Origin: Octopus sinensis
Lineage: Eukaryota
Direction: 5' to 3'
DNA: 64,000 bases
Assembly (NCBI RefSeq): GCF_006345805.1
Contig: NC_042998.1
Span: 171,988,001 to 172,052,000, forward strand
The notes below the pieces were generated by a model. It ran no database searches, was not told where the DNA came from, and saw only the letters and a list, made by a program, of their open reading frames with translations. The translations under genes and the position numbers were made by a program. Of this stretch, positions 4,227-49,377 are shown piece after piece (within the stretch, counting starts at the first letter, position 1; each line of letters starts with the position of its first letter).

Positions 4227-4434
4227 GTATATATTTGAGTAATTGAATGAATTATCTTATTAAGGATAATTCGAAAGATAACCGATACCTGGGTAGCAAA
4301 TTCACATCAGAAAGAACACGGTTGAAGCTACGTCGCTAGGGCATAGACTACGTGTCTTCGTGCGGAAATGTGTATGTTTATTTTAAAATTATAAGTATAT
4401 GAAAGAATGGAGTTGAACGACTAGTTAACAAATA

Positions 4435-4531
4435 TCCTTTATTCTCGACATATGTTTCGAAGGCTGCATATTCCTAATTCCGAAGGAATAAGGAGTACAT
4501 TATGCAGATTTCTCTTCAGGAAAATCAAGGA
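4435..4531 (-). ncRNA. Type I hammerhead ribozyme (HHR-B) with long stem II and palindromic stem III, in element ~4234-4552
   Basis: The reverse complement reads UCCUUgaUUUUC-CUGAAGA-GAAauCUGCAUA...UAUGCAGccUUC-GAAA-CAUAUG-UC-GAGAAuaAAGGA. Confidence 0.8.
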
Positions 4532-17500: not shown

Positions 17501-17510
17501 AAAAGTTGAC

Positions 17511-17628
17511 ACTTACAATATCTAGGCTTCCCATACGATCTCCCATGTAAGTACTGACTAGGCTCGACATTGTTTAACTACGGTGATCGGAGGAGAATCG
17601 GAACTTCCAATTTGATATGAGCGAAAGT
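17511..17628 (-). pseudogene. Degenerate 5S rRNA gene copy
   Basis: The reverse complement ACTTTCGCTCATATCAAATTGGAAGTTCCGATTCTCCTCCGATCACCGTAGTTAAACAATGTCGAGCCTAGTCAGTACTTACATGGGAGATCGTATGGGAAGCCTAGATATTGTAAGT is 118 nt and colinear with metazoan 5S (box A and box C regions recognisable). A T4 run follows shortly after; many substitutions. Confidence 0.8.
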
Positions 17629-17907
17629 AATGTACACAACCCCATCAGCCTCAGCGGAGTTTTGCTGTTTTTTTGTGTAATCAAAGGCGTAATTGTCTAG
17701 TGCGGAGCTGAAAATCAGTTTTCTACGAGTTGGTGTGACTCGTAACGAAAAATATATGTACTACATTTGTGGCTCGCACACAGACACACACAAGCACAAA
17801 CACACACACACACTGACACCCTCACACACACCCTCCAACATTTTTTCCTTGTGTCCTTATATACATATACGAAGGGGAGACAAACACCCCCGGCCGCCGG
17901 AACTGCA

Positions 17908-17953
17908 TCTAGGGACACCGTGTTTCAGGATCGTTGTCCTTCATCGGCCTAGA
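17908..17953 (-). ncRNA. Type I hammerhead ribozyme (HHR-D), CCGAUGA core variant
   Basis: The reverse complement reads UCUAGG-CCGAUGA-AGGAcaacgaUCCU-GAAA-CAcggUG-UC-CCUAGA. All three stems pair; the only core deviation is U4 to C. Confidence 0.75.
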
Positions 17954-17982
17954 GTAGCAGACACCGGTCAGCTGGTGATATT

Positions 17983-19733
17983 ATATCTTTATTCTGGGCA
18001 CGATGGCCCTAATTCAGACGGGACATTACAAGACGGGACGTGGGGTACATAAAGTAAAAATAAAATATGAAATAAAGATGAATTATATATAATGAGATGG
18101 AACGGCTTACGAACCCCCAACTCGCAGTTCCGTTTAAAATACAATTGTACATTTCACAATTACATATATTCCAGTTCAAAATACAATTTTACATTTTACA
18201 ATTTTACAATTAACAATTTTACTTTTTAACATTACATATATTCTAATTCTTTTATATTGGACGTTCGTCCGTCATATATTCTATTAAGTCCATTTGGTCT
18301 ATTACATTTGGTAAATTGTCATACCGTACATAATGCGTTATATAAATAGCATTAAATATCTTTTTTAATTTTGTGAATGTTTCTTTTTCTATAACTGCGC
18401 CTTTTACATCGTCACCATACAGTTTTGGGTTCAACTTCACCCTGACCAACCCTTTCCTACCTGCAAGTCTCTTTTCCACTTCTGTATTCTTGATATACAT
18501 CACAACTGCTTTCAGGTTTTTTCCTGCAGGCCTTCTTCCCTTTTTACACGCTTCCAACTGCTCTTTCACTCTTGTCTCCCATTCTTGGTCAAACTCTGTC
18601 CATGGCTTCTCTCTCGCCTTCTCTTTTACTTCCTGTTCTTTGCATGTTCTCTCTTCTTTTTCTTCTGTTATCTTGCTTTTGATTTTTTTCTTTTTTTGCA
18701 CTTCCGGTGGTGATTCCACCCTTGTTCTCTTCCTATCTTCTGTTCTTTCCTCCTCTGCACTTGCTCGTTCTTCTTCCGTATCCTCATTTAGCTGCTCCTC
18801 CGTTTGTGCCTCCTCTGCTTTCGCTTCCTCCTGCACTTCTCCCTCCTCCACACACGTATCTTTACACTCCTCTATTACAGCCTCCGGTGCTTTCGTTTTT
18901 TCCCGCGGGCACACATCCTTCATGTGGCCCCTTGATTTACAATTATAGCAGACTGGGGGTCTTCCCTCTACCACGACTCTAAGCCGTGTCTCATCAGGGT
19001 AGACCAACTCCTCCGGGATGTTGTACAGGTCTCGCACGGTTATGTGTGCCAGAACCTGCACCGTATATCCCCACCACTTAACCTCTGTTGACTTCTCCAC
19101 CTTCAACACCTCCACACTATCCTTGCAGTTGAAAACCACTGCCGCCAACAACCTCTCCATATTAAATTCGGGCGAAATTCTGCTAATTCTCATCCTCACT
19201 GCCCTCCTTCCGCAGTAACTTGGTAGTAAAGTCCACTTATCCGTTTTCAAAATCCTTGTTGCATTCTTTTTTGCTTCATTTTCTGTTTTAAAATATACCA
19301 CCACTGTGGCATATTTCCTTCCTCTTTTGAAAAATGTGGGTTCACCCTCAATTTCCTTCAGACACTTTTCTACTTCTTCCGTTTCTGCTACTTCTACTTT
19401 TTTCGACGCCACACACCATGTCCTGTACGTTATCATACGCTTCTCCGCGTTGCTTTCTTCCTCCTCGGACGGTGTGACTCTCACGCAGTCACCCTCCCTC
19501 TTTAAACTGTCAAAATACTTCTCTAGAGTTTTCTGTTCGACCACCACTTCTGCCATTTCCTGTTCACTGGCAACTAGGCCTCTGCCTGCTGCTCTCGCAT
19601 AAGTCTGCTCTTGCATTTTCAAAAATCTCCAACAAAAAACTTTTCAACGTCCTCCAACGAACTCGAACTTACAACCTCTTCACAATGACGCACTCGAAAC
19701 AAACACACCAGAATAACGACTCCAAAAAAAATA
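17983..19733 (-). mobile_element. ORF1-only non-autonomous non-LTR retroelement (1751 bp) with a 17-bp TSD
   Basis: Perfect direct repeat GGTCAGCTGGTGATATT at 17966-17982 and 19734-19750. About 117-nt 5' UTR, a single ORF, and about 270-nt AT-rich 3' UTR ending AATAAAGATAT. No RT or endonuclease is encoded. Confidence 0.85.
18252..19616 (-). CDS. Retroelement ORF1-like nucleic-acid-binding protein (RRM-like region plus CCHC zinc knuckle; Tx1/L1-type ORF1 or ZCCHC3-like), 454 aa from the first ATG
   Basis: The only long, non-repetitive intact ORF in the window. It has N-terminal TYARAA, an RRM-like YATVVVYFKTENEAKK segment, LRVVVEGRPPVCYNCKSRGHMKDVCP (CX2CX4HX4C), a Glu/Lys-rich linker with KKKKIK and an unassigned ~90-aa C-terminal region. 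The ORF track starts at a TTG at 19622; the first ATG is at 19616. Confidence 0.85.
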   Translation of the reverse strand: MQEQTYARAAGRGLVASEQEMAEVVVEQKTLEKYFDSLKREGDCVRVTPSEEEESNAEKRMITYRTWCVASKKVEVAETEEVEKCLKEIEGEPTFFKRGRKYATVVVYFKTENEAKKNATRILKTDKWTLLPSYCGRRAVRMRISRISPEFNMERLLAAVVFNCKDSVEVLKVEKSTEVKWWGYTVQVLAHITVRDLYNIPEELVYPDETRLRVVVEGRPPVCYNCKSRGHMKDVCPREKTKAPEAVIEECKDTCVEEGEVQEEAKAEEAQTEEQLNEDTEEERASAEEERTEDRKRTRVESPPEVQKKKKIKSKITEEKEERTCKEQEVKEKAREKPWTEFDQEWETRVKEQLEACKKGRRPAGKNLKAVVMYIKNTEVEKRLAGRKGLVRVKLNPKLYGDDVKGAVIEKETFTKLKKIFNAIYITHYVRYDNLPNVIDQMDLIEYMTDERPI

Positions 19734-19811
19734 GGTCAGCTGGTGATATTTGCCTCGACTTCGTAATTGTATATATGTATACTCAGTAAAGTTTATTCAC
19801 TGATTATCAAA

Positions 19812-20176
19812 ATAAGAAATATTGAATTTCTAAATCTCTCGTAGAGACATGTACGGTGGTGGGGCGATAGAATGGTTGCATACTGTCAATCTAACAAGAA
19901 CGTGACAGTAGGGGGTACACCACCGCTGTATAGCCCTAGGAAGCATCGAACGCCTCCTGATAGCTTTGACACATTTTTGTCTCCCCTTCGTATATGTATA
20001 TAAGGACAAAGGGAAAAAATGTGTCAAAGCTATCAGGAGGCGTTCGATGCTTCCTAGGGCTATACAGCGGTGGTGTACCCCCTACTGTCACGTTATTGTT
20101 AGATTGACAGTATACAACCATTCTATCGCCCCACCACCGTACATGTCTCTACGAGAGATTTAGAAATTCAATATTT

Positions 20177-20181
<5 letters not shown>
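19812..20181. repeat. Long near-perfect inverted repeat (167-bp arms, 36-bp spacer)
   Basis: 19812-19978 is the reverse complement of 20015-20181, with 2 mismatches seen. Confidence 0.95.
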
Positions 20182-20225
<44 letters not shown>

Positions 20226-20227
<2 letters not shown>

Positions 20228-20684
20228 GAATAGGTAAATAAATGGAGTTGAACGATGTTAATAAAATTCTTTTACTTTCGACATCTTTGACGTCAAATCT
20301 ACTAACAGTCTTTTTAAATACTTAATAACATTCTGTTTACCATGTAGGCAGTCATCGTAATTGTTATAATGTATTGTTGTTGAGAGAGGCTCTCTTTCTT
20401 TCCTGATGAGAAGATTGCATCTTGCACCGTTTATTCCTTTGGAATAAAACCATGTTGTCTTCGAAACATATGTCGAAAGTAAAAGAATTTTATTAACATC
20501 TTCGTTCAACTCCATTTATTTACCTATTCGTCTATAACACACAAATTACTGCACATTAACCCGAAGTTTCTACATTTGGATAGGTCGCTTCAACCGTGTT
20601 TCTGACGTGAATTTGCTACCCTGGTAACGGTTCATTGAATTTTCCATGTTAACGGTAAACATAGGATAATTCATTCACCCATTG

Positions 20685-20723: not shown

Positions 20724-20990
20724 AACAAAAAGAAAGCAAAGACTGAAGAATTTCAGACGATGTTGCTCTTTATATTGGTCGATCAAACTTACACAGAGCA
20801 CAAACGACAGAGAAGATTAAAGGTTAAGTGGTAAGGTGCTGGAAGAGGTAGCTGTTGGACTTATAGCACCTATCTTCTCCCCTTTAATTTTCTCTGTCGT
20901 TTGTACTCTGTATAGGTTTGATCTATTAATATACAAAGCTATGTATTCATCGTCTGAAAGTCTTTAGTCTTTGCTTTCTTTCTGCATACA
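20720..20990. mobile_element. Fold-back / MITE-like element with ~105-bp imperfect inverted arms
   Basis: 20720-20823 vs 20881-20990 (AGAAAGCAAAGAC / GTCTTTGCTTTCT; ACAAACGACAGAGAA / TTCTCTGTCGTTTGT). Confidence 0.75.
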
Positions 20991-31328: not shown

Positions 31329-31710
31329 GAATGGCCCAGTGGTTAGGGCAGCAGACTCGCGGTCATAGGATCGCGGTTTCGATTCCCAGACCGGGCGTTG
31401 TGAGTGTTTATTGAGCGAAAACACCTAAAAGCTCCACGAGGCTCCGGCAGGGATGTTGGTGATCCCTGCTGTACTCTTTCACCACAACTTTCTCTCACTC
31501 TTACTTCCTGTTTCTGTTGTACCTGTATTTGAAGGGGCCGGCCTTGTCACTCTCTGTGTCACGCTGAATATCCCCGAGAACTACGTTAAGTGTACACGTG
31601 TCTGTGGAGTGCTCAGCCACTTACACGTTAATTTCACAAGCAGGCTGTTCCGTTGATTCGGATCAACCGGAACTCTCGTCGTCGTAACCGACGGAGTGCT
31701 TCCATCCCAT
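31329..31710 (+). mobile_element. tRNA-derived SINE family 3
   Basis: A box GGCCCAGTGGTTAGGGC and B box GGTTTCGATTCCC. The head is shared with 49378-49690. Confidence 0.85.
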
Positions 31711-40069: not shown

Positions 40070-40680
40070 AATCGTTATCTTAGTCTTCCACAGTCTCTTC
40101 ATCTCTCTTGCTAGATCTCCATATTTCTCAATTTCGTTTCAATTTATTTGCTATCGACTTAATTATCATAGAGAATTACAAAGTCCATGATATTTCAGTG
40201 TTTGTTTAGTTTGTCCTCTATAACTTTATCTAGTTTTTTTTTTGCTTCAATAATATGGTCACTCTTTATAAAGAAGTCCTATAAGATCCTATTGTTCTCA
40301 TTCTCTGTCACAGCATCTGGTTCGTGTTCATATGACTTTCCTATTATTTCGAGGCCACGCATTCGGTTAACATATAAATGCGGTCTTTTAGCTACATAGT
40401 CATGCCTGTGCTTATATCTCTTGTATGTTAGCTTACTGCACTCACTCAAGAGATGATTGATACTTTCACTTCCTTTCCTATTGATTCTATATTTGTTGTC
40501 TGACTGAGTTTTGTTGGCATTTGCCTTTATCAAATTCGTCCTAATGACTTGTTCCTGAGCAGCTATAATAATTAGCGCTTCGACCTCTCGTATCAACTTT
40601 CTATCTATCAGCCAGAGCTAGCGTTCTTTACTTCCAACATTTTTCCATCTGCTTGCTCTGTTGTTGTTCTTTCTCTTCTT
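40070..40680 (-). mobile_element. R4/Dong-clade LINE C-terminal remnant (zinc finger / RLE region)
   Basis: EALIIIAAQEQVIRTN...ESINHLLSECSKL...YKHRHDYVAK and EIEKYGDLAREMKRLWKTK. Confidence 0.8.
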
Positions 40681-45679: not shown

Positions 45680-47262
45680 TGCTGGGGCACCGCCATTTGG
45701 TGTTGCTACTTGGTTTCACTTCATGGAGGCTTTCTAGCAACTGCTATTTGGTGCATGAGAGAGTTCGATGCAGCTGCCCTCATCTGCCCCTCCTGCCGTG
45801 AAGTTGGTTCATCTGGGACACCTGACAGGAAGAGATCCAGCTCCATTTTAAAGACATCTGTATCCACCCCATGCAGGTCTCTCAGGTTCATCGGGAGGAT
45901 ATTGAAGAGCTGTGGGCCTCGGAAGCCCAGGCTATCACAGAATCTTGTCCTACATCTTGATGGCAAGTTTGGAGTGCTAGGCACCACGCAATGGCGCCCA
46001 GTTCTGGCATTTGCGTAACTCTCGATGCCAAAGTTCAGGACACTTCCCTCCAGGATCTTCCAGATGTATATTATGGCATATCTTTCCCGCCTACGCTCCA
46101 GGGAATATAATTTTAATCTCTTGAGTCTTTCCAGTAGCTTACATTCTGCATAGGCTATCTTCTCATGTAGTCGTTGGATCGCCTCAAGTTCTGTGATCAA
46201 CTTGACACTGGATGGTGACCATAGCTGAGAGCAATAGTCAAAGTGACTTAGGACAAGTGTCTTCCAGACGACCATCATGGTTTCTTGTTCTCTTGTTCTA
46301 AAGGTTCTAAGAATCCATCCAGCCAGCCGTCTGCATTTCATTGTCAGTTTAGAACATGTACATGAAAGGTCGCGTCATCACTCATGTGAATACCCAGGTC
46401 ACGCAGATTGTGCCTCTGGGATTGCAATCCCTCCGGGTCCAGTGTATTCCTTGGGTATTGCATTCAGTTTTGCATGCTGATAGTATAAAGCTTGAAACTT
46501 TTCAGCATTGAACTGCATGCTATTCTTTTCAGCCCACTTGTATTTTCGTCCAGCTCATATTGCAGGTGCCTAGTGTCTTCAGGGTTCTGTATTGCCTGTG
46601 AAACTTTTGTATCATCTGCATAACTTGTGATCGTGGCTCTCGCGTGGCTGAGGGCATGTCTGAGAGGGCCATTATGAACAGTAGTGGTCTCAAAACAGTG
46701 CCCTGTGGAACACCGCTCACTATTTGCGTGCTAATGGAAGTGGCCCCATTGGCTACTACCCACCTGACTTCTATTCTTCAGAAGTCGTGAAGCCATTCTC
46801 CAGTTTTCCAACTATGCCCAAGTTCACGCAGTTTGTGACATATCATTCCATGATCGACTTTATCGAAGCTTTGCGAAGTCGAGATATATGACTTCCACAT
46901 TGAGTGTTGAGCAGTTGTTTCAACCCAGTCATAGTGCTGCAGGAGCTGAGTTAAGCAGCTTCTTCCTGGTCGGAAACCATGTTGGGTGTCAGGCAGCAAG
47001 TCATTTTCTTCAAGGAAGGTGATTAGTTTCTTCTGACTATTCGTTCCATGACCTTGCTGATGTGTGAGGTCAGAGAGATAGGTCTGTAGTTCTTGGCCTC
47101 CGCTCTGCTACCTCCTTTATGAATGGCAATTTTACCTTCCTTCAGTTTTCTTGGAAGTTTGCCAGCTGCAAGGAAGCTCTGAAAGAGGAACTGCAGTGGT
47201 CTTGCTAGACTCTCTTACATATTTAGGAGGATTGCCGGGAATCCATCGGGGCCAATAGCTGA
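45680..47262 (-). mobile_element. CR1-group LINE, 5'-truncated, frameshifted RT
   Basis: QHGFRPGRSCLTQLL, FDKVDH, SGVPQGTVLRPLLF, YADDT and GWILRTF...SHFDYCSQLWSP...LYSLERRRERY. Confidence 0.9.
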
Positions 47263-49217: not shown

Positions 49218-49377
49218 TTACTAATTTTATATATTAAAAACGTTCCTGGAAGCTTGTATGTAGGGACACCGTATTTCTAGCACACTAGAACGTAGTACTG
49301 ACTTATAAAAATGTTTAATATACTTTGTATATGATGATTGCATAATGAAATACGGTGTCCCTACAGGTCATTAATGT

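Follow-up and report, generated by a model that had tools for sequence, protein, structure and literature searches.

How did a protein-coding insert come to lie beside a hammerhead ribozyme motif, within a repeat of another kind? The question is raised by a locus of Octopus sinensis in the 64,000-nucleotide stretch of contig NC_042998.1 that we analyzed (positions 171,988,001 to 172,052,000; "the window," with its first letter as position 1). According to the ORF list and the sequence of the window, the insert (17983–19733, minus strand, 1,751 bp) carries a single ORF and lacks ORF2. It is flanked by an exact 17-bp direct repeat (17966–17982 on the element's 3′ side, 19734–19750 on its 5′ side), which has no other copy in the window on either strand; none of 2,000 shuffles of 17838–19975 gave a repeated 17-mer. 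A first-pass annotation had claimed that removing the insert and one repeat copy restores an element of about 575 bp, and excision indeed leaves a host of 576 bp. The 47-bp host end (17838–17884, minus strand) recurs inverted at 19976–20022 with a 96% match, as had been said of the loop region of a palindrome, whose arms (19805–19978 and 20015–20188; 174 nt, 97%) enclose a 36-nt loop. The same annotation had called the host a fold-back element: the palindrome stands, but by its sequence the host combines a single 365-nt monomer, of Penelope/retrozyme type, with an inverted partial copy of 206 nt.

On the minus strand, the monomer consists of a portion upstream of the target (19751–19975, arm and spacer) and a portion downstream of it (17838–17965) with the hammerhead, its cut site, and the 47-bp segment, which forms the 3′ arm of a rod hairpin with a hammerhead cap. 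The partial copy (19976–20181, plus strand; 47-bp segment and arm) is the source of the palindrome at 19805–20188. The type I hammerhead motif (17908–17953, minus strand; stem I of 6 bp, stem II of 4 bp, and a palindromic helix III) has a predicted cut after 17914 and lies 12 bp from the 17-bp repeat, on the strand of the ORF and adjoining it, as first described. Its core reads CCGAUGA (U4C). The window shares this C at position 4 with the loose-end consensus of contig runs X1 and X4, and all other positions of the canonical core (C3 U4 G5 A6 N7 G8 A9 / G12 A13 A14 / A15.1-U16.1 H17) match. By sequence, the motif is thus a core variant rather than a canonical hammerhead. An Rfam scan left it unscored; the Rfam microRNA matches on the palindrome were below gathering scores, reflect hairpins, and were rejected.

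We compared the locus with four Logan contig sets (runs X1, X4, X5, and X7) under three organism labels. These contigs are short, drop rare variants, and are not loci; a junction was counted as bridged only with 31 letters on each side. Loose ends are given for the 24 listed of 423, and 319 variant rows and 4,417 pieces lie beyond those listed. The 365-nt length of the host monomer comes from a head-to-tail joint (19970→17838) found in all four runs, where single contigs do not span two whole units; the locus itself has one hammerhead. The end of the inverted partial copy is a host end in other contigs too, with loose ends before 19811/19812 in two of the four runs, and no target-site duplication flanking the host was seen by eye. 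At 45% GC, with a type I motif and no protein, the monomer fits the retrozyme criteria of 170–400 nt and GC below 50%. The combination of one monomer with an inverted 206-nt copy resembles a pattern of Penelope-like elements, a partial tandem with an inverted 5′-truncated copy (PMC8557442, in its available part).

What does the insert encode? Read on the minus strand, a 117-nt 5′ UTR (19617–19733) begins with a T-rich run (the A-run 19724–19733 on the plus strand) that varies among copies, and is followed by ORF1 (18252–19616, 454 aa from ATG) and an AT-rich 3′ UTR of 269 nt (17983–18251, 30% GC). An AATAAA in the latter (17988–17993) stands 5 nt short of the junction, and the 17-bp repeat ends 22 nt past the motif; the 3′ junction lacks poly(A). 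The predicted structure of ORF1 has two RRM-fold domains (about residues 48–137 and 138–219), with fold matches of Z 9.7 (rmsd 2.5, 83 aligned) and Z 8.1 (rmsd 2.8, 78 aligned), and then a CCHC knuckle (residues 222–237; zf-CCHC E 9e-4, slightly short of the curated cut-off). After the knuckle come a charged linker and a folded C-terminal domain (about 340–447; pLDDT 83), for which there were no Foldseek matches at E≤0.001, no Atlas matches, and only weak ferredoxin-like resemblances (best Z 5.4, rmsd 3.1, 66 aligned); these results neither point to a nuclease nor disprove one. The product is a predicted RNA-binding protein. In the Atlas, the clusters closest to it contain eukaryotic CCHC and ZCCHC3-like proteins (0.91 for the ZCCHC3-like cluster). 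An exhaustive protein search found 371 relatives at E≤0.001; of 14 with names that were looked up, 13 come from Octopus and one from Argonauta, and the 454-aa end coincides with the end of relatives. A word-index search missed the relatives that the exhaustive search found, and its lack of longer fused forms is weak evidence. No reverse transcriptase or endonuclease family appeared among 24 scanned matches. A 200-codon open frame on the plus strand was read as a shadow of the purine-rich ORF.

Do other copies of the insert occupy the same site? We looked for empty-site copies of the host and found them in two of four runs, as a joint (17965→19734) with a 17-letter overlap; in two runs the host also continues past 17982 as loose ends. 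Recurrent flanks, sought likewise, appeared as the same junctions in other contigs. The 3′ junction is bridged in X7, where record 25 spans it (17934–18193, 2 differences), and in X5, as deduced from a variant at 17994, 42 letters from a contig end (2/4 runs). The 5′ junction is bridged in X7, where record 32 spans it (19493–19841) with 39 differences and 5 gaps (about 11%), and in X4, as deduced from a variant at 19718, 46 letters from a contig end (again 2/4). X1 contigs reach into the 17-bp repeat from both ends but fall under the 31-letter rule. Every bridging contig identified joins the same target; among the 24 loose ends listed of 423 there are no other flanks, and none lies at 17983 or 19733. 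The insert is multicopy (at least eight X1 pieces listed, 0–13% divergence), and summed contig depth, which is not copy number, is 41, 56, and 20 times higher for the host than for the insert in X1, X4, and X5. A corresponding ratio of 3.3 in a run provisionally taken to be RNA, against 20–56 elsewhere, was left unused, as contig depth cannot rank expression. Searches of viral, metagenome, and prokaryote collections gave no related loci, which is uninformative for an animal repeat.

Two further features of the contigs concern the repeat itself. A joint in X1 (19731→17966) may represent element–repeat–element; it could also be a short match credited to the other repeat copy. The variant 17970G is present in the junction contigs of X7 and X5 and accounts for only 4, 4, and 9% of the depth at its position in X1, X4, and X5, with no counterpart at 19738 among the variant rows listed. 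Under the criterion of Kojima 2015, a target-specific family has >20% of its flanks in one sequence type. The shared junctions support, at the level of sequence, targeting of the host repeat by the insert. Because the bridging contigs show host sequence and no unique flanks, coamplification with the host would give the same picture, so the earlier proposal that the element targets this repeat gains the recurrent junctions it predicted, but targeting is not fully separable from coamplification.

We favor, with a probability of roughly 0.6, the reading that the insert is a nonautonomous Tx1-like element that an unseen, site-specific partner LINE mobilizes in trans, probably with a read-through tail. 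RRM domains with a CCHC knuckle in ORF1 are a feature of the Tx1 clade. The insert has this layout, which is not unique to Tx1; a long target-site duplication of Tx1 type (the exact 17 bp, whose 3′-side copy could elsewhere in the family come from the element); and the HAL1-like combination of an intact ORF1, no ORF2, and diverged copies. The partner would supply a site-specific endonuclease and a reverse transcriptase; no such LINE was found in the window or, in a weak search, among longer proteins. The intermediate would be an ORF-sense (minus-strand) RNA that continues for a short distance beyond the element into the target, where ordinary AAUAAA processing would end it close to the far limit of the 17-bp repeat. 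Its tail would pair with the nicked target, as reported for R1Bm and R2Ol, and such pairing would yield both the precise, tail-less 3′ junction and the element-linked variant in the 3′-side repeat. Work by Anzai from 2005 reportedly concerns read-through 3′ tails of this kind. ORF1 may have been retained since its product helps package its own RNA. The host would be an abundant, safe landing site; it presumably is a non-LTR retrozyme of Penelope origin, which Penelope machinery copied with a 5′ inversion. The variable A-run at the 5′ end of the ORF stands against this reading; an ORF-sense model does not explain it.

Tx1 targeting of transposons and ORF1-only LINEs are each already known; a literature search did not find the two combined on a ribozyme repeat. 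In the available part of PMC4494074, other transposons serve as targets for Tx1 families and for SINEU-3, with tandem insertions and a 16-bp target-site duplication: Tx1L targets Tx1D in Xenopus, and Tx1-Mar and the nonautonomous SINEU-3 target Mariner-N4_AMi in crocodilians. To the extent that this source describes them, the insert resembles these systems in its fixed site within an abundant nonautonomous repeat, its long duplication (17 bp versus 16 bp in SINEU-3), and its possible tandem copies around one duplication, and SINEU-3 in particular in its presumed reliance on a partner enzyme. Unlike them, it targets a hammerhead-bearing Penelope/retrozyme monomer rather than a DNA transposon or LTR element, and it has ORF1 only, in a mollusc, without a partner or a reverse transcriptase tree. 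The ORF1-only LINEs in the accessible sections of PMC5786205 and PMC5753468 are HAL1 (L1), HeT-A (Jockey), and Ag-Sponge (CR1), with no Tx1-derived example found there. Like these, the insert is multicopy with an intact ORF1, no ORF2, and a UTR at each end; in contrast to them, its ORF1 is RRM-RRM-CCHC with an extra folded C-terminal domain, it is apparently single-site in another retroelement, and its junction lacks poly(A).

The host, for its part, is like non-LTR retrozymes and Penelope pLTR fragments in its size, GC content, hammerhead type, and palindromic helix III, as well as in its head-to-tail junction, rod-like fold, and inverted partial copy at one end (excerpts of PMC7229834, PMC4209133, bioRxiv 10.64898/2026.07.22.740005, and PMC8557442). 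It differs from the retrozymes in those excerpts in its family-wide U4C core and its protein-coding passenger at a fixed site, and no parent PLE was found for it. In R1Bm and R2Ol, a read-through RNA tail anneals to the target (PMC6530143 and PMC7265360, in the parts available), much as proposed for the 3′ junction of the insert; those elements are autonomous, rDNA-specific, and experimentally tested, whereas the tail of the insert is deduced from one linked variant.

If targeting is true, the insert would be one parasite living on another: with ORF1 alone, it would borrow the enzyme of one retroelement to land in the ribozyme repeat of a second. Target-specific Tx1-like behavior would then be known from half-LINEs, from molluscs, and for retrozyme/Penelope targets as well. 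The variant linked to the element in the 3′-side repeat could mark whether the duplication is templated by read-through RNA, and the U4C hammerhead, present family-wide, lends itself to testing whether the ribozymes of retrozymes have been tuned down in monomer form.

Could the site instead recur by descent? One or a few old insertions would then have been multiplied within the host unit as its cargo, either by Penelope machinery, with an RNA of about 2,133 nt that runs from one ribozyme to the next, or through tandem or segmental duplication. This account, the main rival, is possible though somewhat unlikely. All junctions seen lie in host sequence, 17970G fits descent from one composite, and the insert has no reverse transcriptase of its own, shares the sense orientation of the host, and does not disrupt the folding of stems I and II. 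However, the possible element–repeat–element joint is unlike whole-monomer cargo, and the differences listed for X7 record 32 include 16 rows in 19629–19733 (6 in the A-run) against 1 row in 19734–19765. Furthermore, four of the five length changes listed in ORF1 keep the frame (12, 21, 60, and 318 nt; the fifth, a 163-nt skip, is out of frame and of low depth), which suggests selection on ORF1; only 7 of the 17 substitutions listed there, a biased subset, are synonymous.

Insert and host could also form one unit, a protein-coding retrozyme. An RNA of ~2.1 kb would be excised by the flanking host ribozymes, activated as a dimer or via the RRM-CCHC protein, and copied by Penelope machinery, or the ORF1 mRNA would hijack the Penelope enzyme to home into the ribozyme repeat. 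We regard this as unlikely; if true, it would make a LINE gag-type gene parasitic on a different retroelement class.

Does the ribozyme process the ORF1 transcript, as the first-pass annotation had suggested? A read-through RNA cut at 17914 would carry a 69-nt host tail as its 3′ end for insertion, a route that can coexist with the partner-LINE reading. The hammerhead lies on the strand of the ORF and 69 nt downstream, its stems I and II still pair with the insert upstream (computed probabilities 0.85–1.0), the junction lacks poly(A), and the element-linked variant lies 13 nt inside the target. In the available part of PMC3088659, one natural U4C variant reportedly remains active enough for viroid infectivity, and one Penelope hammerhead is protein-assisted (PMC11167929). 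Against this, the same part of PMC3088659 has U4C markedly reducing activity in vitro, the monomer fold favors an off-pathway CCG:CGG pairing over the active fold by 5.4 kcal/mol, and helix III, short and palindromic, is of the dimer type (computed duplex −9.3 kcal/mol). Single minimal PLE hammerheads showed no cleavage (PMC4209133, as excerpted), and no RNA-seq read ends matched the PAc cut site (PMC11167929). The AATAAA, upstream at the usual distance, would normally terminate the RNA before the ribozyme, and the template of the inverted host copy spanned the cut site. Ribozyme processing is therefore poorly supported and doubtful; the ribozyme is probably a neighbor and not a working part of the element.

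Quite improbable is homing without a Tx1 partner, in which the Penelope enzyme that mobilizes the host would nick the terminal repeat of its own element and copy ORF1 mRNA in trans. The 17-bp site ends in ATT on the would-be priming strand, PAc reportedly cuts at 5′-ATT-3′ and nicks its own pLTR (PMC11167929), and the Tx1 ORF2 did not turn up in the weak search among longer proteins. But ATT is a very frequent trinucleotide, PAc starts copying its own RNA at an internal position and has a general preference for AT-rich DNA, and the insert has no Penelope-type tail or inversion.

About as improbable is retrotransposition of a plus-strand RNA, with the A-run as a poly(A) tail, the ORF antisense, and the left junction an R2-like homologous 5′ junction. 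Such a tail could vary as the A-run does among copies (A8TA in the window, +AAAA, about A11, and about A16), and the left junction is precise, with an element-linked variant. Nevertheless, the minus strand has a normal mRNA layout (117-nt leader, ORF, AT-rich trailer, and AATAAA), A8TA is common to the deepest junction contigs of X1 and X4 and therefore looks templated, and selection on an antisense ORF1 is hard to account for.

A single chance insertion of an untargeted element, which the first-pass annotation had allowed and which an abundant host makes possible once, is very unlikely, because both insert ends join the same target in other copies, one about 11% diverged, and no loose end among the 24 listed of 423 lies at the element boundaries. 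We set aside a DIRS or DNA-transposon origin of the insert: the 12-bp inverted match close to its ends is offset and short, and the 17-bp duplication and RRM-CCHC ORF do not fit.

Is the ORF1-bearing segment a genuine insertion into a hammerhead-bearing repeat? The first-pass annotation had described such a nested layout, which is borne out: a 1,751-bp insert (17983-19733, minus strand) lies between exact copies of a 17-bp direct repeat, the target (17966-17982 and 19734-19750; no further copy in the window), and removing it with one repeat copy restores a 576-bp host within 17838-20181. None of 2,000 shuffles contained any repeated 17-mer. Other complex 17-mer repeats with similar spacing occur in the window, so the empty site in public data is stronger proof of insertion than the repeat itself. 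We compared 17822-19975 with four of 20 candidate public contig sets (Logan runs X1, X4, X5 and X7; organism labels A, C, B and A). Empty host sites, a check the annotation had suggested, appear as a joint linking 17965 to 19734 with 17 shared letters (X4, X5) and as loose ends that continue into host sequence behind 17982 (10 contigs in X1, three in X4). The observation as a whole is real.

What kind of object is the host? The 47-bp segment (17838-17884, inverted at 19976-20022) and the palindrome reported earlier are both present in the sequence. In other host copies the arm continues head-to-tail into the 47-bp segment (contigs of all four sets); a joint from 19970 to 17838 is present in all four, and the host repeat unit is therefore 365 nt. 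This unit comprises arm, spacer, target, hammerhead and 47-bp segment (GC 45%). Here one whole unit (minus) abuts a 206-nt partial copy in inverted orientation (plus); the palindrome behind the term "fold-back element" exists, but as a by-product of this arrangement, and so the element is of an ordinary type. In X5 and X7, contigs have loose ends before 19811/19812, which points to the arm end as a recurring host terminus. The empty host is predicted to fold (-70.5 kcal/mol; z -5.9 versus 300 shuffles) into a long hairpin with the hammerhead at its tip and the target in its 5' arm. Size, GC and motif match the non-LTR retrozymes described in PMC7229834, which have been argued to come from Penelope terminal repeats (bioRxiv 10.64898/2026.07.22.740005). 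Partial tandems plus an inverted copy are described as typical of Penelope-like insertions (PMC8557442), and the host at this locus likewise has an inverted partial copy. To the left of the host, at a distance of some 210 bp, lies a full-length 5S rRNA-like copy (17510-17628, minus; 70.3 bits, gathering score 38) that is probably either a pseudogene or the head of a SINE.

The insert belongs to a multicopy family, eight listed X1 pieces diverging 0-13% from the window. Summed depth of host versus insert is 41x (X1), 56x (X4) and 20x (X5), although depth is not copy number. With junctions counted as bridged under a 31-letter rule, X7 spans both: record 25 crosses the 3' junction and record 32, ~11% diverged, the 5' junction. 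Arithmetic on distances to contig ends further implies a contig across the 3' junction in X5 and one across the 5' junction in X4. X1 contigs extend into the repeat from both ends, short of this rule. No loose end fell at an element boundary among the 24 listed of 423. One X1 contig links 19731 to 17966, which may represent two elements around a single repeat—an arrangement reported for SINEU-3 (PMC4494074)—or mapping ambiguity. Four of the five listed ORF length changes are in-frame, located in or around the linker, and two, including the out-of-frame one, contain unknown letters; 7 of 17 listed ORF substitutions are synonymous.

On the minus strand, the insert consists of a 117-nt leader, a 454-aa ORF1 and an AT-rich 269-nt trailer whose AATAAA stops 5 nt short of the junction; the insert contains no poly(A) and no ORF2. 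Structure modeling (mean pLDDT 77) and sequence together give two RRM-fold domains, a CCHC knuckle, a charged disordered linker and a C-terminal folded domain. The latter (~110 aa; 18276-18599, minus) is common to relatives, confidently folded and conserved among octopods; it matched no Pfam family, and its structural matches were ferredoxin-like and weak only. Atlas placement is among eukaryotic CCHC and ZCCHC3-like proteins (0.91-0.92). ORF1 proteins of the Tx1/L1 type typically have an RRM plus CCHC layout, which leaves the clade unfixed. An exhaustive protein search returned 371 relatives at E<=0.001, and RT or endonuclease families were absent from all 24 scanned. Of 20 distinct sequences looked up (hits plus query), 14 had names: 13 come from Octopus (O. 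bimaculoides, O. vulgaris, O. sinensis) and a single one from Argonauta, so the window is probably of octopod origin. One O. bimaculoides gene model (P0019) carries two ORF1-family C-termini in series (residues 2-51 match the C-terminus of a relative at 54%), which hints at copies lying in tandem or next to each other. A 25%-identical relative (P0051 cluster, Logan) sits on four contigs of 1.85-1.93 kb each and may be a further ORF1-only element of comparable size.

How might such an element move? We favor, at a probability of roughly 0.6, an ORF1-only, Tx1-like element that a site-specific partner mobilizes in trans and that uses a short read-through tail. The partner enzyme would act in trans, and normally processed ORF1 RNA would end in the target copy before the ribozyme, supplying that tail. 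From AATAAA to the far edge of the 3'-side repeat is 22 nt, the usual spacing between this signal and a poly(A) site; normal processing would therefore end the RNA in the target copy, upstream of the ribozyme. Junction-bridging contigs of X7 and X5 carry a G at 17970, inside this repeat, and G makes up 4% (X1), 4% (X4) and 9% (X5) of depth there, approximately the insert's share. Because G is seen at 17970 yet none among the listed rows at the matching position 19738, where X4 and X7 appear with a single 5'-junction contig each, these few contigs and listed rows suggest that the 3'-side repeat was inherited along with the element in many copies; the window copy has A at both positions. Target-annealing read-through tails are reported to improve R2Ol and R1Bm insertion (PMC6530143, PMC7265360). 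The main rival, that the insert is cargo of the host, is less likely; the G variant also fits descent of such a composite unit.

Tx1 families that target other transposons have been described, as has a non-autonomous passenger with a shared target (PMC4494074), and ORF1-only LINEs are described in the L1, Jockey and CR1 clades (PMC5786205, PMC5753468). Our literature search, largely title-level and with Repbase, Kojima and Fujiwara 2004 and Bao and Jurka 2010 outside its scope, found no account in which the target of a Tx1-like or ORF1-only element is a hammerhead, retrozyme or Penelope repeat, and none of the octopus insert family.

The hammerhead said to adjoin the insertion was recovered by motif scan as a type I motif (17908-17953, minus); 12 bp separate it from the repeat, and its predicted cut, after 17914, is 69 nt away from the insert. 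An Rfam search did not detect the motif. Its core is CCGAUGA (U4C), and since the X1 and X4 loose-end consensus shares the C, this is a family trait rather than local decay. Known as a natural variant, U4C lowers activity in vitro but permits viroid infectivity (PMC3088659). Off-pathway pairing to the loop of helix III is predicted at -11.9 kcal/mol versus -6.5 for the active monomer fold; with the canonical U the gap shrinks to 3.2 kcal/mol, so U4C favors the off-pathway pairing. Helix III is a palindrome predicted to pair between two copies (-9.3 kcal/mol), as in the dimer design reported for hammerheads of metazoans, where single minimal motifs showed no cleavage (PMC4209133). The hammerhead of the lizard element PAc is reported to require protein and to be dispensable for insertion in vitro, with no reads ending at its cut site (PMC11167929). 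Stems I and II stay whole despite the insert, so cleavage may still occur here; a ribozyme-made 3' end, which is compatible with the other explanations, is nevertheless improbable, and AATAAA processing would end the RNA before the ribozyme. A Penelope enzyme acting in trans on the insert is improbable. The T-rich 5' insert end (19724-19733, an A/T run) varies between copies, a variation for which the ORF-sense model has no account; a plus-strand intermediate is about as improbable as a Penelope enzyme. Chance insertion is very improbable.

Elsewhere in the window, ORFs at 45721-46341 and 40279-40596 (both minus) have no Pfam match and, judged by their motifs, look like LINE RT C-terminal fragments. 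Two exon-sized matches (72-73%) to an LDL-receptor-class-A-bearing protein (P0120) at 31349-31647 (minus) likely mark a gene of the host genome. A second hammerhead-like family, with canonical U4 and a long stem II region, occupies 20221-20536 (plus) and 4406-4519 (minus); its copy at 20403-20474 lies within a fold-back whose arms measure 44 and 31 nt, right after the (TA)n behind the host. A further fold-back (20765-20939) has 59-nt arms at 85% and a 57-nt loop, and a 107-bp element (49259-49365) has perfect 19-bp inverted ends resembling the host hammerhead's helix III plus stem I 3' strand.
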